Shown here piece by piece: positions 8,148 to 58,013 of a stretch of DNA of 64,000 bases (the first letter of the stretch is position 1; each line of letters opens with the position of its first letter). The DNA is from an uncultured Verrucomicrobiota bacterium (lineage in GTDB: Bacteria > Verrucomicrobiota > Verrucomicrobiia > Palsa-1439). Location: contig CAZHLM010000002.1 of NCBI GenBank assembly GCA_964533295.1, positions 30,497-94,496 on the forward strand, in the 5' to 3' direction. Both the position numbers and the translations under genes were made by a program. The notes beneath the pieces were generated by a model. The model ran no database searches, was not told the DNA's origin, and saw nothing but the letters and a program-made list of their open reading frames with translations.

Positions 8148-10331
8148 ATGGGACAATCAATTCTGAAACTTTGTCTCGGGTTGGCGCTGGGCCAAGCCGC
8201 GTTCGCCGAACCGGTGATCTGGACAACCGCGCCGGTCGTCTTGGAGCCGAATCCGCAGAAGCCGATCAAGTATTTTCAGCAAAAGTGGGGTTCATCGGTG
8301 TATCCCATCGGCCATGGCCGGCTCGGCGCGACGATCTACGGCGATGTCGCGGAGGAACGCATCCAGTTCAATGAGGACTCGCTCTGGACCGGCGACGAAA
8401 GCGAAACGGGCCGGTACCAGAACTTCGGGGATATTTTCATCAAGCTCGACGCGACTGCCTTCAGCAATTACCGGCGCGAATTGAATATCGAGCGCGCACT
8501 GCACACGATCACGTATGAAGCGGGCGGGGTGCGGTACCGGCGGGAGTATTTCGCCAGTCACCCGGCCAACGTGATGGTGTTTCGGTTCACCGCCGACAAG
8601 AAGGGCGCGTATACCGGCCGCGTGACGTTGCGGGACGCGCACAAAGCCGAACCGACCGCCGCCGGCAACACGATCACTTGCGCCGGCAAGATCGGCAGCG
8701 GGATCGGGCTGAATTACGAGTCGCAAATCATGCTGTTGAACACGGGCGGCTCGGTCACGGCGACGAATGGGACGTTGACGTTCCAGGGATGTGACAGTCT
8801 GCTCCTGTTGGTGGATGCCGGGACGGATTATCTCAACGAGCGCGCGCGGGGTTGGAAGCAGGCGCATCCGCACGAGAAAATCAGCGCCCGGCTTGCGGCG
8901 GCCGCGAAGCGGTCGTTTGATGATTTGCTGGCGGTACACGAGAAGGATTACCGGCAGTTGTATGACCGGGTGACGCTGGAACTCGGCACGTCACCGGCGG
9001 AGACGCGCACGTTGACGACCGGCCAGCGGTTGGAGGCCTACCGGAAAGGCGCGGCGGACCCGGATTTGGAGGAGATGCTGTTTCAATATGCCCGGTATCT
9101 GATGATCAGCAGTTCCCGACCGGGCGACTTGCCGGCCAACTTGCAGGGGGTGTGGAATCCCTACAACAATCCACCGTGGCGCTCCGATTATCACACGGAC
9201 GTGAACGTGCAGATGAATTACTGGTTCGTGGATCAGGCGAACCTGTCGGAATGTTTTCTCCCGCTCGCCGACTGGGTGAACTCCATCCGGGAGGTGCGGC
9301 GCGAGGCGACGAAGAAAGAGTTTGGCGTGCGCGGGTGGGCGACGCGGTCGGAGAACGGCATTTTTGGCGGCGCGACGTATCATTGGGTGCCCGGCGACGC
9401 GTCGTGGGTTGCACAGAACTTGTGGGATCATTTCGCGTTCACGCAGGACAAGGAGTATCTGCGGACGCGCGCGTACCCGGTAATGAAGGAGCTGTGCGAG
9501 TATTGGGAAGACTCGTTGAAGACGAATGCCGCCGGCAAGCTGGTCGCTCCGAAGAGCCAGTCGCCGGAACACGGGCCGTTTGCGGAGGGCAATTCCTACG
9601 AGCAGCAACTCGCGTGGGATTTGTTCACGAACTACATCGAGGCCTCGGAGGCATTGGGTGTGGACGCGGATTATCGGAAGAAAGTCGCCGCGATGCGCGA
9701 CCGGCTGCTCGGGCCGCAAATCGGGAAGTGGGGCCAGTTGCAAGAGTGGGCGGACGATCTCGACGATCCCAAAGACCAGCACCGGCATCTCTCGCATTTG
9801 AGCGCGGTGCATCCCGGTCGGCAAATCTCGCCGGTGACCACGCCGAAGCTGGCTGAGGCCGCCAAGGTCTCGATGAACGCGCGCGGCGACGGCGCGACCG
9901 GCTGGAGCAAGGCGTGGAAGATTTGCATCTGGGCGCGGCTGCACGACGGCGACCGGGCGTACAAGCTGTTGAGCGAGTTCATCAAGAGAAACGTCTATCC
10001 GAACCTGTGGGGTTTTCATCCGCCGTTCCAGATTGACTGCAACTTCGGTTACGCGGCCGGCGTGGGCGAGATGTTGGTGCAGTCGGATCTTGGCGTGATT
10101 CATCTCTTGCCGGCATTGCCAAAGGCGTGGCCGACCGGCAAGGTGACCGGCCTGCGCGCGCGCGGCGGATTTGAGGTGGACATCGAATGGAAGGATGGGA
10201 AACTGGTGCGCGCGACCCTTCGCAACGTGTCGAGTCCGACCGGCGAGTGCGCGGTACGTTACGGAGACGTCACTGCGAAGCTGTTCGTGCCGAAGGGAGC
10301 ATCCCGTTTGTTTCCAGAAGCGGTAGAGTAG
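8148..10331 (+). CDS. GH95 alpha-L-fucosidase (secreted)
   Basis: GHGRLGATIYGDVAEERIQFNEDSLWTGDE (GH95 N-terminal signature) and DQHRHLSHLSAVHPG. 727 aa with signal peptide. Confidence 0.8.
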   Translation: MGQSILKLCLGLALGQAAFAEPVIWTTAPVVLEPNPQKPIKYFQQKWGSSVYPIGHGRLGATIYGDVAEERIQFNEDSLWTGDESETGRYQNFGDIFIKLDATAFSNYRRELNIERALHTITYEAGGVRYRREYFASHPANVMVFRFTADKKGAYTGRVTLRDAHKAEPTAAGNTITCAGKIGSGIGLNYESQIMLLNTGGSVTATNGTLTFQGCDSLLLLVDAGTDYLNERARGWKQAHPHEKISARLAAAAKRSFDDLLAVHEKDYRQLYDRVTLELGTSPAETRTLTTGQRLEAYRKGAADPDLEEMLFQYARYLMISSSRPGDLPANLQGVWNPYNNPPWRSDYHTDVNVQMNYWFVDQANLSECFLPLADWVNSIREVRREATKKEFGVRGWATRSENGIFGGATYHWVPGDASWVAQNLWDHFAFTQDKEYLRTRAYPVMKELCEYWEDSLKTNAAGKLVAPKSQSPEHGPFAEGNSYEQQLAWDLFTNYIEASEALGVDADYRKKVAAMRDRLLGPQIGKWGQLQEWADDLDDPKDQHRHLSHLSAVHPGRQISPVTTPKLAEAAKVSMNARGDGATGWSKAWKICIWARLHDGDRAYKLLSEFIKRNVYPNLWGFHPPFQIDCNFGYAAGVGEMLVQSDLGVIHLLPALPKAWPTGKVTGLRARGGFEVDIEWKDGKLVRATLRNVSSPTGECAVRYGDVTAKLFVPKGASRLFPEAVE

Positions 10332-10335
10332 CGAA

Positions 10336-12033
10336 ATGACGATCACCCAAACAAAACCTCACCGGCAGTCGGTGGGAAGGAAATGGACCCAGGCTCTGGT
10401 GCTGGTGGCGGCCCTGCTGGTGGCGGGGGTGCGGCTGCGCGCGGCGGAGTTGCCGGCGCGCCCGAATGTGGTGTTGATCATCTGCGATGATCTCAACGAT
10501 TCCGTGGCGGGGATGGGCGGCCATCCGCAGGCCCGCACGCCCCACCTCGAACGGTTGATGGCGCGCGGGGTGCGGTTCGTCAACGCGCAGTGCAATGCGC
10601 CAATTTGCGGTCCGTCGCGGGCCAGCCTGTGGACCGGATTGTACCCGCACACTACCGGCTACTTCGGTTATGCCCAGCAAGCCAACCGCTGGCGGCGCTT
10701 CCCGGCGATGACGAATGCGGTGACCTTGCCGGAACATTTCAAGGCCAACGGCTATCTGGTCGGCGGCACGGGCAAGGTGTTTCACAACGGTCACGAAGAC
10801 AACAGCGTGTGGAGCCCGGCCGACGCGGCGGTCGGGGGCAGCGGCGTGCGCCCGTCGTTCGGGCCGACGCCGTGGGACGGTGCGAAACACGGCACGGGGC
10901 CGGCCGGCAACGGTCATCCGTCCATGCCGCCGCCGTTGAACCAGTTGTTTTGGGGCAGTTTCGGCTCGCTGGCGGATGTGCCGGTGATCCCCGCGGATCC
11001 GGCGCGGAACATTCCCGGCTACGCGGGCTGGCGGTTGGTGGATCGTCCGTTTCGGTACGTGAACGAGACGGACCGGGATCGGATGCCGGATGAGATGAAT
11101 GCCGCGTGGGCCGCGGAACGGCTCCGCCGACCGCAACCGAAACCGTTTTTGATGATCGTGGGGATGAATCGGCCGCATGTGCCCTGTTATGCGCCGCAGA
11201 AATACTTCGATTTGTTTCCGCTGGAGACGATTCAGTTGCCGCCCTACCGCAAGGATGATTTGGCGGACTGCGCGAAGATTCTCTGGCAAGACCCCGCCAC
11301 CGGTGCGCGGCTGGCCGAGGCGGAGGCGTTGTCCCGCTTGTTGGCGGCGGGCGGGGAGACGCTTTGGAAACGCGCCGTCCAAGCTTATCTCGCCTGTGTT
11401 GCGTTTGTGGACGACCAAATCGGCGTCATCCTGGATGCCGTGGAGAACGGTCCGCACGCCAGCAATACCATTGTGATCGTGACCAGCGACCACGGTCTGC
11501 ATTTGGGGGAGAAAGACCACCGGGAAAAAAACACGTTGTGGGAGGAAACAGCGCGGATCCCGTTGGTCATCGCCGGCCCCGGGTTGGCCACCGGCACCTG
11601 TGATCACCCCGTTTCATTGATTGACCTGTATCCGACGTTGATTGATCTCTGCGGGTTGCCGGCGGATCCGAATGCCGGGGGGAATCGTCGGCCGCTGGAT
11701 GGCCATAGTCTGCGACCGTTTCTCCAGAATCCCGCCACCAACCAGTGGGCGGGGCCGGCGGTGGCGCTGACGTGCCGGCCCAGTAGGGAGTCGGTTCCCA
11801 CCAACACTCCCGCGCCCACGGCGCGGCAACACTTCTCGGTGCGTTCCCGCACGCACCGGTACATTTTGTGCGCGGATGGCGCGGAAGAACTCTATGATCA
11901 CCGAACCGATCCCCACGAATGGACGAATCTGGCTTCCCGCCCCGACCAACAGGCCGAGAAAGCGGAACTGAAACGTCAACTCCTGGCCTTGATCGGCCCG
12001 GGACAATCCCCGGCCGCCAAACCCGCGCCATGA
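10336..12033 (+). CDS. Cys-type sulfatase (secreted)
   Basis: Signal peptide; VVLIICDDLND; active-site CGPSRASLWTGLYPH (CxPxR). Confidence 0.85.
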   Translation: MTITQTKPHRQSVGRKWTQALVLVAALLVAGVRLRAAELPARPNVVLIICDDLNDSVAGMGGHPQARTPHLERLMARGVRFVNAQCNAPICGPSRASLWTGLYPHTTGYFGYAQQANRWRRFPAMTNAVTLPEHFKANGYLVGGTGKVFHNGHEDNSVWSPADAAVGGSGVRPSFGPTPWDGAKHGTGPAGNGHPSMPPPLNQLFWGSFGSLADVPVIPADPARNIPGYAGWRLVDRPFRYVNETDRDRMPDEMNAAWAAERLRRPQPKPFLMIVGMNRPHVPCYAPQKYFDLFPLETIQLPPYRKDDLADCAKILWQDPATGARLAEAEALSRLLAAGGETLWKRAVQAYLACVAFVDDQIGVILDAVENGPHASNTIVIVTSDHGLHLGEKDHREKNTLWEETARIPLVIAGPGLATGTCDHPVSLIDLYPTLIDLCGLPADPNAGGNRRPLDGHSLRPFLQNPATNQWAGPAVALTCRPSRESVPTNTPAPTARQHFSVRSRTHRYILCADGAEELYDHRTDPHEWTNLASRPDQQAEKAELKRQLLALIGPGQSPAAKPAP

Positions 12034-12167: not shown

Positions 12168-13259
12168 ATGATTTGGTTCACGACTGTTCTCGCCGGTATG
12201 TTATCCATGGCGGTGATGGCTGACGCGGCTGAGAAGGACGTTTTGGTCGGGGTCAACTACTTTGCCGGCTGGTGGGAGATGAAACCGAACAAGTGGCATC
12301 ACGGCGATGTGGACTGGCGCCCGTTGTACCCGGACCGCCGCCCGCTGCTGGGCGAGTACAACACGCAGGCGACGATGGATCGCGAGATCGTCGCCGCCGC
12401 GGAACACGGGATTAGCTTCTTTCAAATCCTTTGGTACGGGGCCGATGCACAACGCGAGAATGAACCTCTCCTCAATCGCGGTGTGGAACAGTTCATGAAG
12501 TCGCCCCACGCGGGCCGCTTGAAATTCATGATCGAGTACTGCAACCACCCGCCGTTCGGCATTACGTCCCTCGAGCGTTGGCGCAAAGACGTGGCGTACT
12601 GGGTCAAGTGTATGCAACACCCCTCATACTTGCGGGTCGGTGGACGCCCCGTCTTCAAGATTCATGGTGGCGGTCAATTTTTCGAACAGGTTGGCGGGAC
12701 GGAGGGTGTGGATCGTTTTCTGGGCATCCTCCGCGGCGCCGCGCGCGAGGCCGGGCTGGGCGAGTTGATCATCGGGTGCGGCGGTAACGGCCCGGACCCG
12801 TTTCGGGACGATCACTGGATGTTGAAACGACTGGACTACAACAACGAGTACATGGCCGTGCCCAGCATCGAGCGGACGGAAGCGGACCTTCCCTACGCGA
12901 TGCTCGCCCAGCACCACGCGGCGTGGCGTGCGGGGCACACGAACGACACCATACCCACCGTGCCGACGATTCCGGCAGGGTGGAATCCGCGGCCGTGGCA
13001 AGACGACAAGCGCCCTTGTTTCGCCTTTCCCACACGCGCCGAGTGGACCGACACGCTCCGACAGCTCAAGGCCGATTTGGAGAAAGGTGTCTTCGGCTTT
13101 CCGCTCCCGAACGGCGGTGTCCAACCGGCGTTTACGATTTATGCGTGGAATGAGTTTGGTGAAGGCGGCATTGTGGCGCCGACAAAGGGCAGCGGGTACA
13201 TGATGCTGGAGTGCATCCGGGATGTATTTGTGCCAAAGACAAAGGAGCAGTCGAGATGA
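12168..13259 (+). CDS. Secreted TIM-barrel glycoside-hydrolase-like protein (GH99/GHL-type NE[FW]xEG motif)
   Basis: Signal MIWFTTVLAGMLSMAVMADA. GVNYFAGWWE and AWNEFGEGGIV resemble the WNEWHEG-type motif of GH99-like families. Start reassigned from 11919 to the Met preceding the hydrophobic leader. Confidence 0.35.
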   Translation: MIWFTTVLAGMLSMAVMADAAEKDVLVGVNYFAGWWEMKPNKWHHGDVDWRPLYPDRRPLLGEYNTQATMDREIVAAAEHGISFFQILWYGADAQRENEPLLNRGVEQFMKSPHAGRLKFMIEYCNHPPFGITSLERWRKDVAYWVKCMQHPSYLRVGGRPVFKIHGGGQFFEQVGGTEGVDRFLGILRGAAREAGLGELIIGCGGNGPDPFRDDHWMLKRLDYNNEYMAVPSIERTEADLPYAMLAQHHAAWRAGHTNDTIPTVPTIPAGWNPRPWQDDKRPCFAFPTRAEWTDTLRQLKADLEKGVFGFPLPNGGVQPAFTIYAWNEFGEGGIVAPTKGSGYMMLECIRDVFVPKTKEQSR

Positions 13260-13443: not shown

Positions 13444-14862
13444 ATGGTGAGAATCATCCGGTACTTATTGCGAACGATCGCGAAGATCGTGATCGCGTTC
13501 GCTTGCCTGCGCGATTTGGCGACATCAGCGGCAGCGGATGCAGGCCGCAAACCAAACGTCATCCTCATCCTCGCCGATGATTTGGGTTATGGCGAACTGG
13601 GATGTTACGGCGGCCCGGTAAAAACGCCGGTAATGGACAAGCTGGCCCGCGAAGGCGTGCGTTGCACCGACGGTTACGCCGCATTTCCCGTTTGCTCGCC
13701 CTCGCGGTCGGCGCTGCTGACGGGACGTTACCCCGCCCGGTACGGCCCGACCTATGAGGACTACCACGGCGCAGGGTCACCGGATCTGGATCCGCAGAAA
13801 CATCCGACCATCGGCCAGATGATGAAGGATGTCGGCTACCGAACGGCCTGCTTCGGCAAATGGAATGTCGCCAACCAGAATCGCCGGCCGGCCAATGACT
13901 ACGGATTTGATACCTGGGTCGGCTTCCATATCAATCACGATTACTACACGCACAAACTGATCGCCAACGGCGAGTTCGCCCTCTTCCAGGACAGTCAGCC
14001 CTTCGACCGGCCCGGCGTCTGGTCGGACACGATCTTTGCCGACGAGGCCATCCGCTTCATTCAGACGAAAAGCGAAAAACCGTTCTTCATCTACCTGCCG
14101 TTCCAAGCGCCGCACGATCCGATTCAAGATCCGGATGTGCCGTTCGACAAGCCGCGCGACAAGAAGAATCCTGAGAACCGTCCCACCTTGATCAAGATGA
14201 TCGAGCGGCTCGACCGGGAAATCGGCCGTGTTCTCCAGGCGCTCGATGACGAGAAGATCGCCGGCAACACGCTGGTGATCGTGAGCAGCGACAATGGCGG
14301 TGAGCCGAAGATTGCCCGCAACCTGCCGCTCTCGGGCGCGAAACAGGAGTTGCGGGAGGGCGGCATCCGCGTGCCGCTCATCTTCCGCTGGCCCGGCGTG
14401 TTGCCCCAAGGAAAAGTTTACTCCCCGCCGGTCACCACGCTGGACCTGACCGCGACCGTGGCCGCGGCGGGCGGCGCGACGCCCCGCGCCGACAAGCCCT
14501 TCGATGGCGTCAATCTTCTGCCCGCCCTGACCGGCCAGCAACCGCTCGCTGCCGAACGTCCGCTCTTCTTCCGCCGCCGATTCGTGGTGGCCAGCGAGGG
14601 ACTGAATTCTATTTGGCAATCGGCGGTGCGTCAGGGCGACTGGAAGCTCCTGCGGACATATCAACAAATCGCTCCCGGCAGGTTCGCCGCCACCTATTCC
14701 ACGGCCCTCTACAACTTGAAAAACGACCTGGCCGAAGCGAACGACCTGGCGGCAACCCATCCCGAACGAACCACGGCGCTTGGAAAACTTCTCGACCAGT
14801 GGGAAGCGGAAATGAGCCGGACCGCAGAGCCGTTCCCAATGCCAAAGGAGGGAAAACAATGA
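13444..14862 (+). CDS. Cys-type sulfatase (secreted)
   Basis: Signal MVRIIRYLLRTIAKIVIAFACL; NVILILADDLGYGELGCYGG; CSPSRSALLTGRYP. Confidence 0.85.
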   Translation: MVRIIRYLLRTIAKIVIAFACLRDLATSAAADAGRKPNVILILADDLGYGELGCYGGPVKTPVMDKLAREGVRCTDGYAAFPVCSPSRSALLTGRYPARYGPTYEDYHGAGSPDLDPQKHPTIGQMMKDVGYRTACFGKWNVANQNRRPANDYGFDTWVGFHINHDYYTHKLIANGEFALFQDSQPFDRPGVWSDTIFADEAIRFIQTKSEKPFFIYLPFQAPHDPIQDPDVPFDKPRDKKNPENRPTLIKMIERLDREIGRVLQALDDEKIAGNTLVIVSSDNGGEPKIARNLPLSGAKQELREGGIRVPLIFRWPGVLPQGKVYSPPVTTLDLTATVAAAGGATPRADKPFDGVNLLPALTGQQPLAAERPLFFRRRFVVASEGLNSIWQSAVRQGDWKLLRTYQQIAPGRFAATYSTALYNLKNDLAEANDLAATHPERTTALGKLLDQWEAEMSRTAEPFPMPKEGKQ

Positions 14863-14935: not shown

Positions 14936-16858
14936 ATGATGAATAAGTGGCTTTTATTATTCGGTTTGGTATGTGCCGGCGTGGCCGCCGGGGCGGACGT
15001 GAAACGGCCGGTCAAGGTGGTCATCCTCGCCGGCGACGAGAATTGTTTGGAGCAGGCACCGGTGGCCGGGCGCACGGACGGAAGCGACGTGCTGTTGTTC
15101 CTGACGGGCGAGCCGGCAAAAGATGAAGTGGCCGGCATCGTGCACTGCGAGGTGCGCAAGGGCACGACGGTGGCGGCGACCGGGACCGTTGGTCTGGGCG
15201 AGCCGCGGAAGAAAAAGCAGGCGCGGCCCTGGCCGGCGTTTCCAGAGTTGGCGTTTCAGGATGGCTACACGACGGTCGTGCGCGGTTTTCTTGCCGTGCC
15301 GCGTTCGGGCCGGTATGAAGTGTGGCCGGGCGAGGGAGACGCCGCGTTCAACGTCACGACGCTCGCAGGCAAGGAGGTTTACCGACGCGAGGCCGGGCCG
15401 GCCACGGTGACCGCGGTGCACTTGGAGGCGAAGAAGCGGTATCCGTTTGAGACGGTGTACTTCAAGAGGCCGGGGACGGAGTTCCGCGTGCCGCAGGTCA
15501 ACGTTCCCGGTACGCTCGAAACGGTGATGGCCGAGAAAAAGCAGTATGCGTTTTTGAAGGACCTGAAACGCGACGACGTGATTCTCTACGATGCCCATCC
15601 GATCCACAACAACACCCGCGCGCCGGGGCGGCCGTTGCAGGTGACCAACGCGGTCGGGCCGGAGTTGATGCTGGGGAATGTTTTGGGAAATCACTTCGAG
15701 GAACCGGTATTTCTGTTGCGGTTTGCGACGCGGCACCCGGTTTGGTTTCAACGCGGCAGCCGGTCGCTGGGGCACGATTACCTGCCGCCGTCGAGCGGGG
15801 GCGATCCGAATCTGCAGGGCAGTTGGGATGTGATCCATTTCAACTGGGGCGTGTGGGATGCCGGGTGGAAAGACAAGTCATCAAAGTATTACCAAGGGCA
15901 CGGGAACACGACGTCGGTGGCCGATTTCGAGAAGAATCTGCGGACGTTGGTGGCGCGGATGAAGCAGACCGGCGCGACGTTGATCTGGGCCAGCGTGACG
16001 CCGGTGTGGAAGGGCGAACCGGACAAGCCGAACGCCGACGTGGTTGCGTACAACGCGGTGGCGGAAAAAGTGATGAAGGAAAACGGGGTGATCATCAACG
16101 ATCTGAACGCGCTCGTTCCCAAAGGCACCGGCAGTTGGGTGGATCCGAATGTTCACGCCGTCGGCAACCTCGCGCCGCAGGTGATCAAGACCATCCGCGC
16201 GGCGCTGGCGAGTCGCCCGAAGAAAACCAAACCGCTGCCACGCGTGTTGCTCATTGGCGATTCGATTACCGGCTCGTACCAGGAGGCGGTGATGAAAAAC
16301 CTCGATGGCGAGGCGGTGGTGTTCAAGAACCCCGGCAACGCCGAAAGCACCTGGACGGGCTTGAAGAAGATTGATGAGTGGCTTGATTTGAAGCGTTACC
16401 TGCAGAACGGTCAGGAGTATCTCGAACTGGTCAACAGTGTGAACGATTCGCTGGCGCAACTGCCGCGTTTCCTGCCCGGTTATCAAAACCAGGGCTACGA
16501 AATTGCCGGGTTGGTGTGGATGCAGGGGATTGCGGACAGCGGTTCGCCGTCGCACGCGGCGGCGTATGAGCAGAACCTCGCCAACTTGATCCGCGACCTG
16601 CGCCGGGATCTCAAAGCGCCGAAAATGCCGGTCGTGGTGGCGGCGTTGAAAATGGGCGATGGCAAAGTGTACGACGCCCAACGAGCGGTGGGCGACCCGG
16701 TGAAGTATCCCGAGTTTGCCGGCAACGTGACGGTCGTGAACACCCAACCATTTTTCCGTGGCGGCGATCCGCGGACACTCGGCAGCCATGCTGAAACATT
16801 CCTCGAAGTCGGCGAGGCGCTGGGCCAGGCGCTGGTGAAACTTTTGGAGGCCAAATAA
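14936..16858 (+). CDS. Secreted multi-domain carbohydrate esterase: SASA/DUF303-like scaffold (degenerate block I) + PA14-like insert + SGNH hydrolase domain
   Basis: VKVVILAGDENCLEQ stands in place of GQSNM. PA14-like block: YEVWPGEGDAAFNVTTLAGKEVYRRE...RYPFETVYF. SGNH block I: RVLLIGDSITGSYQE. SASA block II: GYEIAGLVWMQGIADS. Confidence 0.65.
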   Translation: MMNKWLLLFGLVCAGVAAGADVKRPVKVVILAGDENCLEQAPVAGRTDGSDVLLFLTGEPAKDEVAGIVHCEVRKGTTVAATGTVGLGEPRKKKQARPWPAFPELAFQDGYTTVVRGFLAVPRSGRYEVWPGEGDAAFNVTTLAGKEVYRREAGPATVTAVHLEAKKRYPFETVYFKRPGTEFRVPQVNVPGTLETVMAEKKQYAFLKDLKRDDVILYDAHPIHNNTRAPGRPLQVTNAVGPELMLGNVLGNHFEEPVFLLRFATRHPVWFQRGSRSLGHDYLPPSSGGDPNLQGSWDVIHFNWGVWDAGWKDKSSKYYQGHGNTTSVADFEKNLRTLVARMKQTGATLIWASVTPVWKGEPDKPNADVVAYNAVAEKVMKENGVIINDLNALVPKGTGSWVDPNVHAVGNLAPQVIKTIRAALASRPKKTKPLPRVLLIGDSITGSYQEAVMKNLDGEAVVFKNPGNAESTWTGLKKIDEWLDLKRYLQNGQEYLELVNSVNDSLAQLPRFLPGYQNQGYEIAGLVWMQGIADSGSPSHAAAYEQNLANLIRDLRRDLKAPKMPVVVAALKMGDGKVYDAQRAVGDPVKYPEFAGNVTVVNTQPFFRGGDPRTLGSHAETFLEVGEALGQALVKLLEAK

Positions 16859-16890: not shown

Positions 16891-19800
16891 ATGATGGTTT
16901 GGGCAGTATTCGTTCTGTTTGTGACAGGACTTTTGACCCCGGCTGATGCGATGAACTACTTCGTTTCCAATACCGGCGCGGACAACGCGCCGGGCACCGA
17001 GGAGCGGCCGTTCGCCACACTCGGCAAAGCGTGCAGCGTCCTGCAGCCCGGCGATACCTGTTATTTGCGTGGCGGCGTGTACCGCGAGGTGCTCCGCCCG
17101 GCCCGATCCGGTAAACCCGGCAAGCCCATCATTTTCACCAAGTACCGGGATGAACGGGTCATCCTCAGCGGGGCCGACCCCATCGCCGGCTGGCGACGCG
17201 AGGCGGACGGAGTGTACTCCGCCCCGATGCCGTGGACGATGCCGGATGGTAATCAGGTTTTCTTCAACGAAGAGATGTTGGTCGAGGCCTGTTGGCCCAA
17301 CCCCGGCCCGGCCCACCTGTTTCAGCCCGAACGCGCCACGGCGACGGCGGGCACGGAGACGACGTTGCGTTGCGATCAGCTTACCGGAGCGAAGTACGCC
17401 TGGAAGGGGGCCCGGCTGTGGTGCGCTGGCGGTGCGGGGTGGATCTGCTGGAGCTCGACCGTTACCGGCGTTGACCCTGAAACACACACGCTCACGTTTG
17501 AACCCAAACGCGAGCAATGGTACCGGCCGCGCAAGGGCAATCCGTTCGTCCTGCGCGGCAGCCGACTTGCCCTCGATGCGCCCGGCGAGTGGCTCTATGA
17601 CGCCGAACGCAACCGCCTGCTGCTGATCCCGCCGACCGGGGGCGCGCCGGCCACGGGCGCGGTCGAGGCCAAACGCCGCGATTATGTGATGGATCTTGCC
17701 GGTCGCTCGTGGATCGAGATCGCCGGCATGGAGTTCCAGGCCGGTGGTGTGAAGACCGATGCCGACTCCCACCACATCACGCTGAAGAACCTCACCGGGC
17801 GTTACGTCGCGCACAGCTACGACAAGGACACCAGCGACCGGGCGGTGTTGCTCCATGGCAAACACCTGTTGTTGCTCAACAGCGATATTGGTTACAGCTC
17901 GGCGGCGGTGGTCCACGTGCAGGGCGAGGACAACCGCGTCATCAACTGCCACCTGCACCATGGCGGTTACGCCGGGCTGTGGAGGGGAACGGTCGTTTTG
18001 TCGGGCCGGCGAATTGTGTTCAGCCACAACACCGTGCGTCATGCCGGCCGCGATCTGGTCAATACCCACGGTCTGATGGAGAGTTTTGTCCAGTACAACG
18101 ACCTCTCCGACGCCGGCTGGCTGACCAATGACCTTGGGATGCTCTACGGGCACAACACGGACTACGCCAACACCGAGTTCCGCTACAACCTCGTCCACGA
18201 CAACCGCGCCCGGCAATGCGCGCTGGGCATCTACTTCGACCACCTCAGCCACAACGCCATCGTCCATCACAACGTGATCTGGAATGTGCGCGCCGATCCG
18301 GTCCGCTTCAACAACCCCGCCTACAACAATCTGGTGTTCAATAATTCCTGCTGGAACACCGGCGATTTCTCGACCTTCGACCACTCCAAACGCAACGACC
18401 TGTTCGCCTGCCGGTATTTCAACAATCTTTACAACGGGCAGAGCTTCCTGCCGGCGCACGTCGCGGTGTACCAGAACCTCTCCACGCGCGCGCCCGGTTT
18501 CGAGAATGTCTATCGCAATCCCGAGGCGCTGGACTTCCGGCTGTTGGAGTCGGTCCAGCAATCCAGCTCCGGCATCGGCGCGTATGCAGCGGACGGCAAA
18601 TGGTGGCGCGCCGGCGGCAACCCCGGCAACCCGCCCGATCCGTTGCCCGAATACGCGCCGCCACGGATCGCCTGGATGAACACGGTCCGCAACGCCTGCT
18701 TCGAGTTTGGCACGCTCGAGGGCTGGACGAAGACCGACGCAAAGACGGCGCAACTGACCAAAGGCAACGGGTGGGGCAACGCCGCGTTCGGCGGCAGCAA
18801 GGAAAACCACCCGACCGGCACGTCACGTTTCGAGCTGCAACTCGGTCCCGGCCGCGATGGCGTCGAACAGGTCATAGAAGGACTCAGCCCCGACACCCCG
18901 TACGAACTGTCGGCCTGGCTGCGTGTTTCCGGTGCGGACGAGACGATCATGCTCGGCGTCAAAGACCACGGGATGCCGGAGCAAACCGCCGCCCACTCCG
19001 GTACGGAGTGGACACGCAAAACCGTTGCGTTCACCACCGGCCCGCAGGCCGCCCGCGCGACGATTTACTTGCGCAAGACCTCACCGGGCAACGGCCGGGC
19101 TTGGGCGGACAACGTCACCCTGCCTCTAACCCCCAAGGAAACGAAAGGAACACAACAGATCATGCCGCACACCGACCGGAGCGACCTTCCCGTTGCCCGC
19201 TTGCGGGAGGATTTCCTGAAGCTGAAGTTCGGGATGTTCCTCCACTTCAATTTGGAGACCTACAAGGGGGTGCAGTGGGTCGCGGGCTACCACAGCCCGG
19301 CGGACTTCAATCCGGGCGGCCCGATTGACACTGACGCGTGGGCGGAGGCGGCGAAAGCAGCCGGGATGCAGTACGCCGTGCTGACCGCCAAACATGTCTC
19401 GGGCTTCTGTCTGTGGGACAGCCAGTACACGACGTACGACGTGATGAATCCGGCATGCCCGGATCCGCAGGACCTCGTGGCGCAATTTGTGAAGTCGTTT
19501 ACGAGCCGGGGATTGAACGTCGGATTGTATTACTGCTGGCGGCATCCGGGTTTTCCCGAGAAGCACAAAGTGCTGCCGCCGGAATGCGATCCGGCAACGC
19601 ATTCGTTGCCGGAGCAGATCGAGTTTCAAAAGAAGCAGATTGCGGAGTTGGTCGAGAAGTTTCCGCAGGTCTTCTATCTCTGGAACGATGGGCTCGACCC
19701 GGACATCATGCCGGCCGAGCAGGCGACGGCTTTCATCCGCAGCTTGCGTCCCGGTCTGCTCGCTTCGGGCAACTGGTGGGATTGGAAGAAGAAGGGGCTG

Positions 19801-44474: not shown

Positions 44475-46555
44475 CGAGTTCGCTTACCACCGTTGACTGG
44501 CCGGCGTTTCTCGCGGCGCACGACATGATCTGGGAGACGGTGCCGGACAGTTGGAAGGAAGCGCCCCATTTTGGCAACGCGCTGCTCGGTTCGATGCTGT
44601 ATCGGCGCGACGGGAAACTCTGTCTGGAGATGTTTCGCGCCGACGTTCACGACCGCCGCGACGAAACGCACGGCTGGACTGCGTACAGCCGGCCGCGGTT
44701 TCGGATCGGATATTTCACGCTGGAAAATGCCGGCAAGCTGACCGGCTGTCGGTGGCGGAAGGATTTGTGGAACGCCGAGTTGACCGGCACGATCACCACC
44801 GAGCGCGGCGAGATTGGTCTCCGGCATTTTGTTCACGCCGAGGACCTGGTCGGCGTGACCGAGTGGACGGGCGCGACGGGGTTGCGGTGGCAGTGGCATC
44901 CGTTTGCGGCCCGCACGACGCGCGAGGGCTATCCCACGGACGCGGCCAGCTTGGATGCGTTTGCGAAGCGCTACGGGGAACATTACCGGCCGACGCTTCA
45001 GCCGCTGATCCCGAATCCGCCGGGGCGGTTGGAAAACGGGATGTGGATTCAGGATTTGCTGGCCGGTGGGCGGTATGTGACCGCATGGAAAGAGGAGGCC
45101 AACCGGCTGGTCGTCGGGACATCGGCCAATCTGCAATACGATCCGGAACGTCACCGGGCCTGGTGGCACGCGTATTACCGGCGCAGTTACGTCCGCATCC
45201 CGGACAAGAAATTGGAGGCGTTGTACTGGCAGACGGTGTACCGGCTGGGCTGCACGGCGCGGGCGGGGCGGAGTTTCGTGGATACGTCCGGCATTTGGTT
45301 TCAAGGCGGGTCGTGGCCGTATGCGACGCATGATTGGAACACGCAGGCGGCGCACTGGGGCGTGTATGCGGCCAACCGGCTGGAGCAGGGCGCGGAGATC
45401 GTGAATCGCTTGCAGGCGCATCGCGAGAGCCTCGTTCGCGCCGTCGAGCCGGCAGAATGGCAGACGGACTCGGCGTATCTGGCGTTGGCGACGGCGGGCG
45501 ACCTGGCCGGGACGCGCCGCAGTGACATGCGGTACTATCATCTGGTCGGGTGTCTGCCGTGGTTGCTGCACAACGCGTGGTGGCAATACCGGTATTCGAT
45601 GGATGAGGCGCTGTTGCGGGAGACCGTCTTTCCGTTGCTGCGGCGCGCGGTGAATCTGTATTTGCATCTGCTGGAGGAGGGCGACGATGGCCGGTATCAT
45701 CTCGCGCCGACCTACTCGCCCGAGACCGGCGTGTGGCGGGACGGCAACTTCGATCTCGCGCTGTTGAAGTGGGGCTGTCACATGTTGCTCCAGGCTTGCC
45801 GGCGGTTGCGGATGGATGATCCGCTGATCCCGCGCTGGCGGGAGGTGATCGCGAAGTTGGTGGACTTCCCGGCGGACGAGAAGGGCTACCGGCTCGGCCG
45901 GGATGAGCCGGCGCGGGAGCATCACCGGCATTTGTCGCATCTGCTGATGATGTATCCGTTGTATCTGGTGAACATCGAGCAGCCCGGTAATCGGGAGATT
46001 TTGCGCAAGTCCTGTACCGCGGGCTGGCAACCGGACAAGCCGTTGCAGGCGATGGTGCAGGCCCATGCCGGGCCGATCCAGGCTTCCGTCGGCAATGGCG
46101 ACGCGGTGTTGGCGGGACTGCGTCGGCTCCAGGAGGAATTGCACCCGAACGGTCTGTGGGGCGAGCCGCCGTGCATCGAGTCCACGTTGGCGGTGTTGAA
46201 CAACGTCCAGATGATGCTGCTCCAAAGCTGGAGCGACCCGGCCCGCGATGAACCGGTGTTGATACGAATTTTCCCCGCGCTACCGGCAGCGTGGGAGGAT
46301 GTGGAGTTTCAGGACTTGCGCGCCGAGGGCGCGTTCCTGGTTTCCGCCCGGCGTCGCGGCGGCGCGACGGAATGGGTGCGAGTCAAGAGTCTGGCCGGTG
46401 AGCCGTGTCGGGTGAAACTGGATTTGCGGAGTCCGCAGGTCGAAGCGCACCCGCGGAGCGCGGTTGCCGAGGTGCAGCCGGGAATGTTCGAATTAAATCT
46501 GCCGCGAGATGGGGAAGTCGTGTTTCGCCAACCGGGAGCGAGTGTGCCGGGATGA
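44471..46555 (+). CDS. GH95-like six-hairpin glycosidase (distant fucosidase/galactosidase homolog), cytoplasmic
   Basis: EHHRHLSHLLMMYPL parallels the DQHRHLSHLSAVHPG motif of the bona fide GH95 at 8148. 694 aa, no signal peptide. Confidence 0.5.
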   Translation: MTSSLTTVDWPAFLAAHDMIWETVPDSWKEAPHFGNALLGSMLYRRDGKLCLEMFRADVHDRRDETHGWTAYSRPRFRIGYFTLENAGKLTGCRWRKDLWNAELTGTITTERGEIGLRHFVHAEDLVGVTEWTGATGLRWQWHPFAARTTREGYPTDAASLDAFAKRYGEHYRPTLQPLIPNPPGRLENGMWIQDLLAGGRYVTAWKEEANRLVVGTSANLQYDPERHRAWWHAYYRRSYVRIPDKKLEALYWQTVYRLGCTARAGRSFVDTSGIWFQGGSWPYATHDWNTQAAHWGVYAANRLEQGAEIVNRLQAHRESLVRAVEPAEWQTDSAYLALATAGDLAGTRRSDMRYYHLVGCLPWLLHNAWWQYRYSMDEALLRETVFPLLRRAVNLYLHLLEEGDDGRYHLAPTYSPETGVWRDGNFDLALLKWGCHMLLQACRRLRMDDPLIPRWREVIAKLVDFPADEKGYRLGRDEPAREHHRHLSHLLMMYPLYLVNIEQPGNREILRKSCTAGWQPDKPLQAMVQAHAGPIQASVGNGDAVLAGLRRLQEELHPNGLWGEPPCIESTLAVLNNVQMMLLQSWSDPARDEPVLIRIFPALPAAWEDVEFQDLRAEGAFLVSARRRGGATEWVRVKSLAGEPCRVKLDLRSPQVEAHPRSAVAEVQPGMFELNLPRDGEVVFRQPGASVPG

Positions 46556-46592
46556 TGAAGCGAGCAAGTTTGGGACAGGCTGTTGTAGGGCG

Positions 46593-46682
46593 CGATGGCT
46601 GTCGTTTAGGAATCGCGCCGCGGACAGGGTTGATCATTCCTCGCGGCGCGCACCCCAAACGACGGGGATGCGCGCCCTGCAA
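46593..46682 (+). repeat. Copy 5 of TIR-bounded double-hairpin intergenic element
   Basis: TTGTAGGGCGcgatggctGTCGTttaggaatcgcgcc...ggcgcgcaccccaaACGACggggatgcgCGCCCTGCAA. Both halves here are near-identical inverted units. Confidence 0.6.
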
Positions 46683-46692
46683 ATTCTTTGTG

Positions 46693-47469
46693 ATGCTGGT
46701 GGGCTTTGGCGTGGCGGTTGGCAGTTTCGGGTTGTCCGCCGGGACGGTGCAGGAACACGAACTGTATTCACAAGAGGGAACCGACCCGACGTTCGAGTCG
46801 TTGCTGGCCGAGGGCGTGATTCCGGTGGGCAGCAACAGCACGCGGGGCGTGACCGGCTCTGTCATCCGCGTCAAACATCCCGTGCCCGGCGGCCCGATTC
46901 CGAAAGCGATCGCGATTCACACGTTGTGCAACGCCTCCATTCCCCGCCGCGACTTCGCGAAATGGACGCGGTGGTATCAGGAGGACGGGAACACGCAAAT
47001 CTTCCGGCTGTTCCAGGGCGAGACGAATGTGCGGAACGACCGGAAACTGGCCGCGCGGATTGAAGCGTTTGGTGGACAATGGGACGCCGGCCCGACCAAC
47101 GTCTGGCACGAGTGGGAGGGCACCTGCACGATCGTCAAACCGCACGGCGCGGCGATTTTTCAATCGAAGAACAATCTGAACGACTGGAGCGTCATGATCA
47201 ATCTGTCCGATACCGGCGACATCAAGTTGAACCATCGCCGGCATCAGGAGGATGTGGTGATCGCCACGAACATGACCGGCAAGAGTTTCGGCTTGAAGGT
47301 GCGGGACAATGGCCGCGACTACGAAGTGTATTTCAACGACCAAAAAGTCGGCGCCGGTCATTACGACCGGCCGGTAGGGAAAAACGCGTTCCGCTGGGGC
47401 CTGTATGTCGGCGCCAACGAGGTGCGGCACGACGCGATGATCTTTGTGACGGGGGCCAAATTTCGATGA
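46693..47469 (+). CDS. Secreted/anchored concanavalin-like jelly-roll protein, possibly PL7/alginate_lyase2-type polysaccharide lyase
   Basis: Hydrophobic leader MLVGFGVAVGSFGLSAG. KAIAIHTL, TQIFRLFQGETNVR and RWGLYVGANE loosely resemble the QIH / R-x-E-x-R / YFKAGxY blocks of PL7. Weak call. Confidence 0.3.
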   Translation: MLVGFGVAVGSFGLSAGTVQEHELYSQEGTDPTFESLLAEGVIPVGSNSTRGVTGSVIRVKHPVPGGPIPKAIAIHTLCNASIPRRDFAKWTRWYQEDGNTQIFRLFQGETNVRNDRKLAARIEAFGGQWDAGPTNVWHEWEGTCTIVKPHGAAIFQSKNNLNDWSVMINLSDTGDIKLNHRRHQEDVVIATNMTGKSFGLKVRDNGRDYEVYFNDQKVGAGHYDRPVGKNAFRWGLYVGANEVRHDAMIFVTGAKFR

Positions 47470-55782: not shown

Positions 55783-56670
55783 ATGTCCACCCCAGTGAAA
55801 ACCGGCGGCTTGGGCTACGAACTATTGCTGTTGTTGGTCTCGGTGATTTGGGGTTCGACGTTTGTGGCCCAGCAGATTGGGATGGAACGCGGGTTGGGGC
55901 CGATGACTTTCAACGCGTTGCGGTTTGCGTTGGGGACGCTGGTGTTGGTGCCGGTGATTTGGCTGCGTCAGACCAGTGATACCGGCCTGCCGCTCAAGGG
56001 CAGCCTCCTGGCCGGGGTGTGTTTGTTTGCGGCGGCGGGCTTTCAACAGGTCGGGCTGCAATACACGTCGAGCGCGAATGCGGGATTCATTACCGGGTTG
56101 TATGTCGTGATGGTGCCGGTGATCGGGTTGTTTCTGGGGCGGCAAGCCCGGCGCAGCTTGTGGGTCGGCGCGGCGGTGTGCGTGGCGGGGTTGTATCTGT
56201 TGAGCGTGACGGCGGAGTTGACGATGGGGAAAGGAGATTTGTTGGTGCTGGTGTGCGCGGTGTTGTGGGCGTTCCAGATTTTGGTCATTGACCACGTGGC
56301 GCAACGGGGCGACCCGGTGCGGATTGCGGCGGTGCAGTTTGCGGTGTGCACCGGGCTCAGCGCCGTGGCGGCGGGGTGGTTTGAGCCATGCACGATGGCG
56401 GCGGTGCGGGCGGGCGCGGGTGCGGTGGCGTATGCCGGGATTTTGTCGGTGGGCGTGGCGTTCACGTTGCAGGTGGTTTGTCAGAAACGTTGTCCGGCGG
56501 GACCGGCGGCGGTGATGATGAGCATGGAAGCGGTGTTTGCCGCGCTGACCGGTTACGTGGTGCTCGGGCAAACGTTGACGCCCCGGGCGCTGCTCGGTTG
56601 TGGCTTGATGCTTGCCGGGATGCTGATGGTGCAGTTGGTGCCGCTGTTGAAAGGAAAGAAAACGGAGTGA
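55783..56670 (+). CDS. EamA/DMT-family (10-TM drug/metabolite) transporter
   Basis: Two repeated 5-TM halves, each carrying EamA-like GSTFVAQQIG / MEAVFAALTGYVVLGQTLT signature segments. Confidence 0.7.
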   Translation: MSTPVKTGGLGYELLLLLVSVIWGSTFVAQQIGMERGLGPMTFNALRFALGTLVLVPVIWLRQTSDTGLPLKGSLLAGVCLFAAAGFQQVGLQYTSSANAGFITGLYVVMVPVIGLFLGRQARRSLWVGAAVCVAGLYLLSVTAELTMGKGDLLVLVCAVLWAFQILVIDHVAQRGDPVRIAAVQFAVCTGLSAVAAGWFEPCTMAAVRAGAGAVAYAGILSVGVAFTLQVVCQKRCPAGPAAVMMSMEAVFAALTGYVVLGQTLTPRALLGCGLMLAGMLMVQLVPLLKGKKTE

Positions 56671-58013
56671 ATCAAAAACCAAATCTGATTTTCGTGTTGG
56701 CCGACCAATGGCGGGCGCAGGCGTTTGGGTATGCCGGTGACCCGAACGTCCAGACGCCGAACATGGACCGGTTCGCGGCGGCGAGCGTGAATTTTGCCAA
56801 CGCCGTGTCGGGCACGCCGGTCTGCACGCCGTACCGGGGAACGTTGATGACGGGAGTGTATCCCCACCGGCACAAGTTGATGGTCAACGACCAGTGTTTG
56901 TATGACCGCTATCCCGGTCCGTTTCTCGGCGAGTGCCTGCGCGACGGCGGTTACCGGACCGCGTACATCGGCAAGTGGCACATTGACGGCCACGGGCGCA
57001 GCGCGTTCGTTCCGCCAGAGCGCCGATTGGGTTTTGCGTGGTGGAAAGGTTACGAATGCTGTCACGATTACCGCAATTCGCCGTACTACTTCGGCGACGA
57101 CCCGCAGCCGCGCCGCTGGCCGGGCTACGACGCCGATGCGCAGACCGACGAGGCATGCCGGTATCTCCGCGAGGAAGTGGACGAGAATCCGTTCGCGCTG
57201 GTGTTGTCGTGGGGGCCGCCGCACAACCCGTTCGGAACGGCACCGGAGCCATTCGAGAAGATGTACGACCCGGCCGCGATCCAGTTGCCGGCGAACGTGC
57301 CGGCTGCGGTGGCCGACCGGGCGCGCAAGGAACTCGCCGGGTACTACGCGCATTGTTCGGCGTTGGATGCGTGTTTTGGCCGGTTGCTCGCCACGCTGGC
57401 CGCGACGGGCCTGGACAAGAACACGATTGTGATCTTCGCGTCGGACCACGGCGACATGCTCGGCAGTCAGGGCATGTTTCGGAAACAGAGGCCGTGGGCG
57501 GAGTCGGTGCGCGTGCCGTTTCTGGTCCGGCATCCGCAGGTGAAACACCCGCGCGTGGATGACACGCCGATTGACGCGCCGGACTTGATGCCGACGTTTC
57601 TCCGTTTGTGCGGACTGCCGGTACCGACCGCTGTGCAAGGCCGGGATTTCAGCGCGACGATTGTGGAGGGCAAACCGTCCGGCATCGAGAGCGCGTTGCT
57701 GGCGTTGTACACGCCGTTCCACGAATGGCGGCGGGAGGATGGCGGGCGGGAGTATCGTGGCTTACACACGGCGCAGTTTACGTATGTGCGGTCGTTGGAC
57801 GGGCCGTGGTTGCTGTACGACAACGTGGCGGACCCGGCGCAGTTGCACAACCTCGTGCCCGATCCGCAGCATGCCGCGCTGGTCCGGGAATTGGACGCGG
57901 CGTTGACGAAGCGGCTGGGGGAAATCGGCGACGAGTTTTTGCCGGGGCCGGAGATCGTCAAACGGGAAGGGTATGCCCTCAACGCGAAGGGGGACATCGC
58001 GTACACGTTGTAA
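56667..58013 (+). CDS. Sulfatase-family protein with variant active-site CTPYR, leaderless; GTG start
   Basis: VNQKPNLIFVLADQWRAQ...CTPYRGTLMTGVYPHRH. GTGA overlap with the EamA stop. Confidence 0.7.
   Translation: MNQKPNLIFVLADQWRAQAFGYAGDPNVQTPNMDRFAAASVNFANAVSGTPVCTPYRGTLMTGVYPHRHKLMVNDQCLYDRYPGPFLGECLRDGGYRTAYIGKWHIDGHGRSAFVPPERRLGFAWWKGYECCHDYRNSPYYFGDDPQPRRWPGYDADAQTDEACRYLREEVDENPFALVLSWGPPHNPFGTAPEPFEKMYDPAAIQLPANVPAAVADRARKELAGYYAHCSALDACFGRLLATLAATGLDKNTIVIFASDHGDMLGSQGMFRKQRPWAESVRVPFLVRHPQVKHPRVDDTPIDAPDLMPTFLRLCGLPVPTAVQGRDFSATIVEGKPSGIESALLALYTPFHEWRREDGGREYRGLHTAQFTYVRSLDGPWLLYDNVADPAQLHNLVPDPQHAALVRELDAALTKRLGEIGDEFLPGPEIVKREGYALNAKGDIAYTL

Follow-up and report, generated by a model that had tools for sequence, protein, structure and literature searches.

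An uncultured freshwater-sediment verrucomicrobium carries a SusC/D-less gene island with four DUF6288 paralogs, putatively for a fucose-containing sulfated heteropolysaccharide

Introduction

Loci for fucoidan degradation have been described in Lentimonas sp. CC4 (Sichert et al. 2020, cited in PMC13174399) and in the Planctomycetota strains 892 and 913 (PMC11685898). These loci are devoid of SusC/D and combine GH29, GH95, and beta-helix glycosidases with diverse S1 sulfatases and deacetylating esterases. In marine Verrucomicrobiota metagenome-assembled genomes (MAGs) from diatom blooms, GH29, S1_15, and PF03629 (SASA) genes are likewise co-localized without SusCD, and the contexts of GH29 are enriched in xylanases; a microalgal fucose-containing sulfated polysaccharide was inferred as the substrate (Orellana et al. 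2021, PMC8857213). A locus sharing these features, from the same superphylum, was analyzed here. It occupies most of a 64,000-nucleotide (nt) stretch (“the window”) of an uncultured Verrucomicrobiota bacterium (assembly GCA_964533295.1, contig CAZHLM010000002.1, positions 30,497 to 94,496), and all coordinates below refer to this window. With modest confidence, the locus is read from its sequence as a two-compartment island without SusC/D, of the type found in the Planctomycetes-Verrucomicrobia-Chlamydiae (PVC) group, that would serve for a local fucose-containing, sulfated, O-acetylated heteropolysaccharide in freshwater swamp sediment. Its dominant feature is a set of four DUF6288 paralogs.

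The published core set for fucoidan comprises glycoside hydrolase (GH) families GH29, GH95, and GH141; an endo-fucanase of GH107, GH168, GH174, or GH187; sulfatases of S1_15, S1_16, S1_17, S1_22, and S1_25; and esterases. Exo-fucosidases alone are found in about half of Planctomycetota genomes and endo-fucanases in fewer than 3%. GH168 enzymes are TIM barrels, and those of GH174 and GH187 have beta-sheet folds. To our knowledge, work on sulfated fucose-containing polysaccharides has been almost confined to the sea, where they are turned over slowly, with consequences for carbon storage.

A preliminary description of this DNA had placed a fucoidan-like degradation island, of a composition known from marine isolates, at 8148-58013. 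Its inventory was largely correct, but it overlooked the four DUF6288 genes and was also without the DUF6785/6784, GH101-like, WbsX-like, GH63-like, and two GH5-like genes.

Results

Extent, layout, and compartments of the island

Genes were picked from a mechanical list of open reading frames in the window (G+C about 62%), which was filtered by third-position GC and by reading of the N-termini. About 36 genes, numbered g01 to g36, form three tightly packed blocks: g01-g17 (plus strand, 976-32979), g18-g21 (minus strand, 33195-40143), and g22-g36 (plus strand, 40425 to past 64000). Thus, two long co-directional runs flank one opposing four-gene operon. Intergenic spacers are mostly shorter than 200 nt, and stop and start codons overlap at g11/g12, g13/g14, g15/g16, g23/g24/g25, g26/g27, g28 through g31, g33/g34, and g35/g36. 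Because of this packing, the co-directional runs, and the many overlaps, the clustering is not attributed to chance: the gene island is real and at least 60 kb long, and the window holds most of it. The island spans from about 2552 to past 64000, and is therefore wider than had been described. The left extension (2552-8066) features a GH63-like gene, two GH5-like paralogs, and a gene for a putative beta-helix protein that is exported; all of them run in the same direction as the GH95 gene that follows. At the right, g36 is cut by the window end, and the island therefore continues beyond 64000. Neither tRNA genes, nor Rfam matches, nor housekeeping genes were found in the window.

No SusC/SusD or TonB-receptor Pfam domain was detected in any of the 36 genes, as the preliminary description had held, and the locus is accordingly not a polysaccharide-utilization locus of the Bacteroidota type. 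Homologues of the marker genes come almost only from Verrucomicrobiota and Planctomycetota, with the best named relatives in both phyla, which bears out the assignment to a SusC/D-less locus type of these groups. Genes for fucose catabolism or microcompartments were absent from the window.

Signal-peptide-like N-termini were noted in about 17 products (g05-g13, g15-g17, g19, g24, g26, g35, and g36); about 16 are leaderless (g02-g04, g14, g20-g23, g25, g27-g32, and g34), and two others are membrane proteins. Divergence is deep in every paralog pair, with identities of 24-37% among the sulfatases, 29-32% among the DUF6288 copies, and 24-51% among the esterases; different specificities are therefore implied.

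Fucosidases, esterases, and xylanase

Eleven genes provide the fucosidases, the carbohydrate esterases, and a xylanase-family enzyme.

8148..10331, plus strand: g06, exported GH95 alpha-L-fucosidase/galactosidase; PF22124 508 bits, PF14498 164 bits, PF21307 77 bits
44471..46555, plus strand: g25, divergent GH95-like protein, leaderless; PF22124 78 bits (partial), PF21307 33 bits; BH0842 (2rdy) E 6e-13
16891..20079, plus strand: g11, exported fusion of beta-helix, CBM4_9, and GH29, 1062 residues; Pfam and PDB sequence matches
38449..40143, minus strand: g21, GH29 alpha-L-fucosidase, leaderless; PF01120 286 bits; PDB 9rzy E 9e-99, 6gn6, AlfC
14936..16858, plus strand: g10, SASA/GDSL carbohydrate esterase, exported; PF03629 E 5e-16, PF13472 E 4e-11
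23756..25156, plus strand: g13, SASA esterase, exported; PF03629 E 3e-16
25153..26175, plus strand: g14, GDSL/SGNH esterase, 340 aa, leaderless; PF13472 E 6e-14, PF14606 E 2e-13
26297..27505, plus strand: g15, SASA esterase, exported; PF03629 E 7e-18
36653..38452, minus strand: g20, SASA esterase, leaderless; PF03629 181 bits
61296..64000, plus strand: g36, exported, TSP3 repeats and SASA domain, cut by the window end; PF18884 E 6e-13, PF03629 E 8e-11
35505..36656, minus strand: g19, GH10 endo-xylanase family, exported; PF00331 328 bits

In g06, all three GH95 domains (N-terminal, catalytic (alpha/alpha)6, and C-terminal) score above the Pfam cut-offs. The same is true of the two domains matched in g25, in which the N-terminal domain of GH95 is missing and whose identity to g06 is 25%. 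The modules of g11 are a beta-helix (residues ~20-475), CBM4_9 (597-729), and GH29 (769-1058); its PDB matches were to GH29 fucosidases (E 7.5e-32) and to the GH120 xylosidase 3vst (E 9e-13, residues 21-115), and the beta-helix module also matched the GH141 enzyme BT_1002 weakly (E 7.5e-4). The nearest solved relatives of g21 are exo-fucosidases. The exo-alpha-L-fucosidases (GH29, GH95, or GH141) expected of a fucoidan locus such as those of Lentimonas CC4, strains 892 and 913, and Wenyingzhuangia are therefore present (two GH29 and one GH95, plus one divergent GH95-like protein). The GH10 gene follows the SASA and GH29 genes (g20, g21) in one operon and overlaps the stop codon of the upstream SASA gene. 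Beside the bacterial thrombospondin type-3 repeats of g36, a weak CBM5/12-like stretch was observed.

These results uphold the preliminary calls of one GH95 and one GH95-like gene and of a GH10 gene with an acetyl-esterase partner. Of three GH29 modules that had been counted, only two exist, as 16891-20079 holds a single one. Six SASA/SGNH de-O-acetylases are present by Pfam, but five lie within 8148-58013 and the sixth starts at 61296. Similarly, one of two beta-helix proteins (g11) was found there; the other (6480-8066) falls outside and is weakly supported.

Sulfatases

Seven genes code for S1 sulfatases.

10336..12033, plus strand: g07, exported, CGPSR; PF00884 148 bits; nearest solved, arylsulfatase 6hhm and iduronate-2-sulfatase
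13444..14862, plus strand: g09, exported, CSPSR; PF00884 206 bits; nearest solved, exo-4S-kappa-carrageenan sulfatase 6prm, 241 bits
48772-50058, plus strand: g28, leaderless; PF00884; nearest solved, “S1_8B” sulfatase 9bbd
50055-51527, plus strand: g29, leaderless; PF00884; nearest solved, N-acetylgalactosamine (GalNAc)-6-O-sulfatase and “S1_15A” sulfatase
51517-52920, plus strand: g30, leaderless; PF00884; nearest solved, human arylsulfatase A (ARSA)
52917-54317, plus strand: g31, leaderless; PF00884; nearest solved, human SGSH
56667..58013, plus strand: g34, leaderless, CTPYR; PF00884 175 bits; nearest solved, 8di0, endo-4-O-sulfatase 6s21, and chondroitin sulfate/dermatan sulfate 4-O-endosulfatase 6j66

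The formylglycine motif C-x-[PA]-x-R is present in 7/7 (CGPSR, CSPSR twice, CTPSR, CSASR, CQPSR, and CTPYR), so that the earlier count of seven stands together with the PF00884 matches. Across g28-g31, PF00884 scores were 122-210 bits and mutual identities 26-33%. Five of the seven are leaderless, their starts being fixed by overlap with preceding stop codons; leaderless sulfatases had been noted before and are confirmed by these N-termini. The nearest solved sulfatases span seven different subfamilies. For g09, they are the kappa/iota-carrageenan 4-sulfatases, and S1_15-type structures among those nearest to g28-g31 are 7oze, 6s20, and 9bas. Overall, the closest solved enzymes are of carrageenan, glycosaminoglycan, and ulvan type. 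A fucoidan sulfatase was closest for none; 6hr5, which we take to be S1_25, and 7aj0, presumably a fucoidan sulfatase, appeared as lower-ranked matches only. Recent tandem duplication of the sulfatases was ruled out by their 24-37% identity.

The leaderless sulfatases lie in a leaderless, start-stop-coupled operon (47466-58013) composed of an M28 peptidase, four sulfatases, a GH101-like protein, an EamA transporter, and the fifth sulfatase. Desulfation is predicted here for the cytoplasm, whereas in Bacteroidota the sulfatases are periplasmic.

The DUF6288 family

Four exported paralogs of DUF6288 are encoded in the window.

20076..23582, plus strand: g12, paralog 1, exported, PDZ-like domain, barrel, and HEAT repeats, 1168 aa; PF19805 415 bits
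27502..29934, plus strand: g16, paralog 2, exported, 810 aa, the modelled copy; PF19805
29950..32979, plus strand: g17, paralog 3, exported, 1009 aa; PF19805 372 bits
58117..61296, plus strand: g35, paralog 4, exported, 1059 aa; PF19805 325 bits

PF19805 was matched at full length in all four (325-423 bits, model positions 1-402 or 2-402 of 402), and signal-peptide-like N-termini are present in 4/4. Three of the genes are interleaved with three esterase genes, and the fourth (g35) is followed by the TSP3-SASA gene. Full-text literature searches found no paper mentioning DUF6288 or PF19805, and a PDB sequence search found no solved protein that matches DUF6288 outside the HEAT region.

The product of g16 was modelled with AlphaFold2 (pLDDT 84.9, pTM 0.86). 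The model consists of a signal peptide, a PDZ-like beta domain (48-140), a twelve-helix (alpha/alpha)6 barrel (~156-470), and a HEAT solenoid (482-800). Among 167 diverse copies of the domain, the near-invariant polar residues are E119, C155, K157, E230, Y231, D237, N285, Y330, N342, H380, and R417, a pattern as expected of an active site. Such a pattern is compatible with a hydrolase or with a lyase of the (alpha/alpha)-toroid type. Fold relatives are the GH76 alpha-1,6-mannanases, the GH88/GH105 unsaturated uronyl hydrolases, and the epimerases of the AGE type, all of which likewise have clustered conserved acidic, His, Asn, Tyr, and Arg residues. DUF6288 differs from them in its extra PDZ-like domain and long HEAT solenoid, and identities are only 6-16%. 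Membership of GH76 was not found by sequence: no GH76 was matched, and GH76 is a fold relative only (6-12% identity). Because its barrel is (alpha/alpha)6, DUF6288 is neither a TIM barrel like GH168 nor a beta-sheet protein like GH174 and GH187; assignment to either of the latter two was ruled out on fold.

When 1.84 billion representatives were searched with a profile of the four window domains, 2,489 clusters at 50% identity were found; for 853, E was <= 1e-30. Conservation of the g16 orthologues is unusually high, with identities of 54-63% along ~800 residues in both Verrucomicrobiota and Planctomycetota. Several MAGs hold 3-5 copies. Judged from these sequences, this conservation between phyla suggests that the proteins are under strong constraint, have moved laterally within the PVC group, or both. 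A few records of g16 relatives (Klebsiella, Kuenenia, Nealsonbacteria, and Anaerolineales) look like labels of mis-binned MAGs. When DUF6288 was searched against PLSDB plasmids with tblastn, one cyanobacterial HEAT-repeat match was the only result; a GH95 search of plasmids yielded generic soil and gut plasmids. No link to a known fucoidan megaplasmid was found.

Neighbors were surveyed at 80 loci from species-representative genomes, in which genes were called and the 119 immediate neighbors of DUF6288 were scanned against Pfam. SASA was the commonest family (23/119), followed by Laminin_G_3/DUF2341 (~11), sulfatase (9), F5/8 type C (5), GH78 rhamnosidase (4), and GH95 (2). At the BLAST level, esterase-like genes made up 9.9% of genes at distance 1 but 2.4% at distance >=4; for sulfatases, the shares dropped from 7.4% to 0.8%. 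SASA is fused to DUF6288 in 4 of the 23 longest representatives, and no other domain of the 25 families most often fused in them is enzymatic; the other fusions are to cell-surface or carbohydrate-binding modules (Big_9, cadherin-like, Laminin_G_3, PA14, and PATR). The close homologue P0103 is another DUF6288-SASA fusion. Since fusion, adjacency, and the present locus agree, DUF6288 is tied to extracellular O-acetylesterases and sulfatases.

On the modelled fold and this context, the DUF6288 proteins probably constitute a new enzyme family that cleaves glycans in concert with SASA esterases. A fuller statement is offered only tentatively: DUF6288 would be an exported hydrolase or lyase family with an active site of E230, D237, H380, R417, N285, and Y330 and with SASA esterases and sulfatases as obligate partners; it would be a core depolymerizing activity for acetylated, sulfated, deoxyhexose-rich exopolysaccharides in freshwater and soil Verrucomicrobiota and Planctomycetota, and a candidate CAZy family of ~2,500 clusters at 50% identity.

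Lyase-like proteins

Two further exported products resemble polysaccharide lyases (PL).

42429..44474, plus strand: g24, DUF4962 and Hepar_II_III_C, exported, PL35-related candidate lyase; Pfam; PDB 8khv E 6e-13, PL35 chondroitinase 9o3q E 6e-12
46552..47469, plus strand: g26, exported beta-jelly-roll of PL7/PL28/PL18-like fold; Foldseek of an AlphaFold2 model

The PDB matches of g24 cover only ~180-290 residues, and its two Pfam domains are just above the cut-offs; the heparinase II/III-like protein that had been proposed is thereby supported at the family level. The mature part of g26 was analyzed from 46693 (46693-47469) and was taken to be the protein previously called PL7-like. It had no Pfam match at E <= 1 (including PF08787), no NCBIfam match, and no PDB sequence match, and membership of PL7 by sequence was therefore not found. 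Its 523 detectable homologues come from Verrucomicrobiota, Phycisphaerae, and Lentisphaeria; none has a Pfam domain, and one is named “Polysaccharide lyase” in UniRef. The AlphaFold2 model (built on 30 homologues, pLDDT 91) was matched by Foldseek to the PL7 alginate lyase 5zqi (E 1.8e-10, TM 0.58/0.68), the PL28 ulvan lyase 6d2c, a PL7 glucuronan lyase, and PL18. The fold is thus common to these lyases and g26, but identity is only 8-15%: the PL7-like label holds for the fold and not for the sequence. Conserved residues of g26 are R122/E124, Q157, and Y238. They sit in motifs that resemble R-x-E-x-R, Q-x-H, and Y-F-K-A-G-x-Y of PL7, and the position of the PL7 histidine is presumably taken by a lysine (K159).

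Habitat and relatives

The g16 protein is identical to P0001, which has records on an NCBI contig of 123,562 bp and on Logan assemblies. Two Logan contigs, one each from SRR10095373 and SRR10095374, hold g14-g17 in unchanged order, and their g16 protein is 100% identical; the 340-aa g14 gene is likewise called on a Logan contig. Both runs belong to BioProject PRJNA564648, from the forested thermal swamp of Liard River Hot Springs, northern British Columbia, and represent “Cool” sediment (19 °C). Pedosphaerales and several Planctomycetota are among the MAGs tabulated for the Liard study, but no link of this contig to any one of them was found. An exact look-up of the GH95 protein in the contig index gave no match. 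Because identical genes occur there, the source is taken to be an inland freshwater-sediment bacterium, and the marine-isolate framing of the preliminary description is set aside. Of the 80 related DUF6288 loci, nearly all are from Verrucomicrobiota and Planctomycetota MAGs recovered from lakes, peat, fens, soils, and groundwater.

Remaining genes

The other genes of the window are as follows.

976..2223, plus strand: g01, PEP-CTERM protein with an HpiC1-like (CBM-like) domain, flanking the island; PF07589 E 8e-6, PF22825 E 4e-10
2552..4312, plus strand: g02, GH63-like (MGH1-like) glycosidase, leaderless; PF22422 157 bits
4309-5349 and 5433-6446, plus strand: g03 and g04, GH5-like TIM-barrel paralogs, leaderless; PF00150 E 5e-11 and 3e-3
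6480..8066, plus strand: g05, exported putative beta-helix protein with a pectate-lyase-fold N-terminal motif; signal peptide; PF12708 only, E 4.5e-3, residues 44-64
12168..13259, plus strand: g08, WbsX-like exported protein; PF14307 E 5e-7; no PDB sequence match
33195..35168, minus strand: g18, DUF6785/DUF6784 polytopic membrane protein, 657 aa; PF20581 233 bits, PF20580 76 bits
40425-41408, plus strand: g22, Zn alcohol dehydrogenase; PF08240, PF00107
41554-42432, plus strand: g23, ThuA-like protein; PF06283
47466..48758, plus strand: g27, M28 peptidase with PA domain, leaderless; PF04389 117 bits
54378..55604, plus strand: g32, GH101-like (partial similarity), leaderless; PF12905 64 bits; EngBF E 1.5e-6 over ~100 residues
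55783..56670, plus strand: g33, EamA-family membrane transporter; PF00892 132 bits

The PEP-CTERM protein had been noted before; it is present, outside 8148-58013. The GH5-like paralogs are 44% identical to each other, and neither has a PDB sequence match. NCBIfam gave nothing useful for ten unassigned proteins. The membrane protein g18 is encoded by the last gene of the minus-strand GH29-SASA-GH10 operon, and full-text searches found no paper on DUF6785/DUF6784. The Zn-dehydrogenase and ThuA-like genes open the third block, and a ThuA-like gene is also near DUF6288 in 4/80 other loci (L022, L032, L033, and L063). By sequence, this pair hints at an oxidative (keto-sugar) step.

Discussion

The favored reading and a possible mechanism

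The favored reading is that the island would act on a fucose-containing, sulfated, O-acetylated heteropolysaccharide. Xylose and uronate parts are proposed because of the GH10, PL35-like, and PL7-fold genes. That the sulfatases are nearest to types acting on carrageenan, GalNAc-6S, chondroitin-4S, and iduronate-2S and to the SGSH type was counted in favor of a heteroglycan over a fucan, and a fucose-containing sulfated heteropolysaccharide appears to fit the gene content better than a fucan does. Most plausibly, the natural substrate would be an exopolymer of cyanobacteria, microalgae, diatoms, or other mat or sediment organisms, not a brown-algal fucan.

In the proposed scheme, SASA/SGNH esterases would remove O-acetyl groups outside the cytoplasm, and the two exported sulfatases would remove exposed sulfate. 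GH95 and the fusion protein g11 would then release terminal L-fucose. Cleavage of the backbone and of side chains would fall to the GH10, PL35-like, and PL7-fold proteins, the beta-helix modules, and the four DUF6288 barrels. Fragments would enter via the DUF6785/6784 protein and/or the EamA transporter; these are the candidate importers because they are the only membrane proteins, g18 ending the GH29-SASA-GH10 operon and g33 lying inside the leaderless sulfatase operon. In the cytoplasm, the leaderless GH29, the GH95-like protein, esterases, the five leaderless sulfatases, and the GH101-, GH5-, and GH63-like proteins would finish the fragments.

Several points weigh against this reading. The similarity of the sulfatases to their nearest solved structures is modest (~150-280 bits) and does not fix specificity; specificity was read from those structures, and some of the SulfAtlas subfamily names are tentative. 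The compartment split rests on N-terminal sequence, with signal peptides judged by eye and by a hydrophobicity score. A Foldseek comparison of the whole g16 model with the PDB returned HEAT/ARM solenoid matches only, and DUF6288 may be a binding or scaffold protein, a role in keeping with its HEAT and PDZ-like domains. Which organism would make the proposed natural substrate, and what structure it would have, is conjecture. Finally, the three transcription blocks could serve different substrates.

Alternative readings

The last point leads to the rival that survives best, which we nevertheless judge unlikely: a mosaic of independent sub-loci lying side by side, for example one for acetylated xylan or fucosylated xyloglucan (GH29-SASA-GH10, GH95, and esterases) and one for a sulfated glycosaminoglycan-like polymer (the PL35-like, 4-O-endosulfatase-like, and GalNAc-6-sulfatase-like genes). 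The three blocks do lie on two strands, the GH10, SASA, and GH29 genes form their own operon with a membrane protein, g24 resembles a PL35 chondroitinase, g34 is nearest to chondroitin 4-O-endosulfatases, and decaying woody biomass reaches the Liard site. However, the sulfatases of block 1 are interleaved with GH95, esterase, GH29, and DUF6288 genes at spacings of 5-185 nt or with overlaps, and DUF6288 copies are found in both plus-strand blocks. Elsewhere, too, DUF6288 co-occurs with esterases and sulfatases together, and sulfatases are not needed for plant hemicellulose.

Less probable still is a true fucoidan island, with a sulfated alpha-L-fucan backbone as substrate, like those of Lentimonas CC4 or the Planctomycetota strains 892 and 913. 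Published fucoidan loci of the PVC group do pair GH29, GH95, and GH141 with S1 sulfatases and esterases in the absence of SusCD, and the present locus offers two GH29 modules, a GH95, the weakly GH141-like beta-helix of g11, S1_15- and S1_16/19-like sulfatases, and many esterases; moreover, a fucose-containing sulfated polysaccharide of the diatom type could occur in fresh water. The endo-fucanase is what fails to appear. No PDB chain was matched at E <= 0.05 by g03, g04, g05, g08, or g26 in a sequence search for GH107 and GH168, which very distant members could escape; in the same search, g24, g25, and g32 matched only chains of the PL35, GH95, and GH101 types, respectively, and the fold of DUF6288 differs from those of GH168 and GH174/GH187. 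None of the nearest solved sulfatases is a fucoidan sulfatase. Two or three fucosidases in ~36 genes compare with dozens in specialized degraders, and exo-fucosidases alone, being present in about half of Planctomycetota genomes, are not diagnostic. The GH10 and two lyase-like proteins, the lack of genes for fucose catabolism or microcompartments in the window, and a source in inland freshwater sediment, not a marine or brown-algal habitat, also argue against a fucan. The preliminary substrate therefore survives as a sulfated, O-acetylated, alpha-L-fucose-bearing glycan, but its framing as fucoidan is not supported, there being no endo-fucanase match and no fucoidan sulfatase among the nearest solved relatives.

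Degradation of animal or host mucin-type O-glycans, as in Akkermansia, with fucosidases, sulfatases, sialate-O-acetylesterase-like SASA proteins, and a GH101-like endo-alpha-GalNAc-ase, is highly improbable: GH29, GH95, SASA, GH101-like, and S1_15-like (GalNAc-6-sulfatase-like) genes are present and Akkermansiaceae are among the homologue sources, but no sialidase, hexosaminidase, or beta-galactosidase family was found by Pfam among the 36 genes, the resemblance to GH101 extends over only ~100-200 of the 408 residues, and the sediment source and the GH10 and lyase-like genes do not fit mucin.

Significance and comparison with known systems

Under the favored reading of a heteropolysaccharide island, the locus suggests that a toolkit comparable to that of the sea exists in PVC bacteria of inland sediments, and it implies freshwater sulfated glycans that are yet to be characterized. 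Its interest lies mostly in this implication and in DUF6288, for which the locus is a well-defined genomic context in which to assign a function. This context may also be of use for the DUF6785/6784 protein, possibly a counterpart in transport to the SusCD of Bacteroidota.

The marine loci of Lentimonas CC4 (Sichert et al. 2020, cited in PMC13174399) and of strains 892 and 913 (PMC11685898) are induced by fucoidan and feature GH168 or GH107 endo-fucanases, S1_17/22/25 sulfatases, and many fucosidase paralogs. The present locus is from fresh water, with no endo-fucanase detected, two or three fucosidases, a GH10 and two lyase-like genes, and four DUF6288 genes. Closer still are the GH29 clusters of the diatom-bloom MAGs, although these are marine (North Sea) and much smaller, and neither DUF6288 nor a cytoplasmic sulfatase operon is described for them (PMC8857213). 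The locus is of a known kind, placed in a different habitat and built around a different, uncharacterized core.

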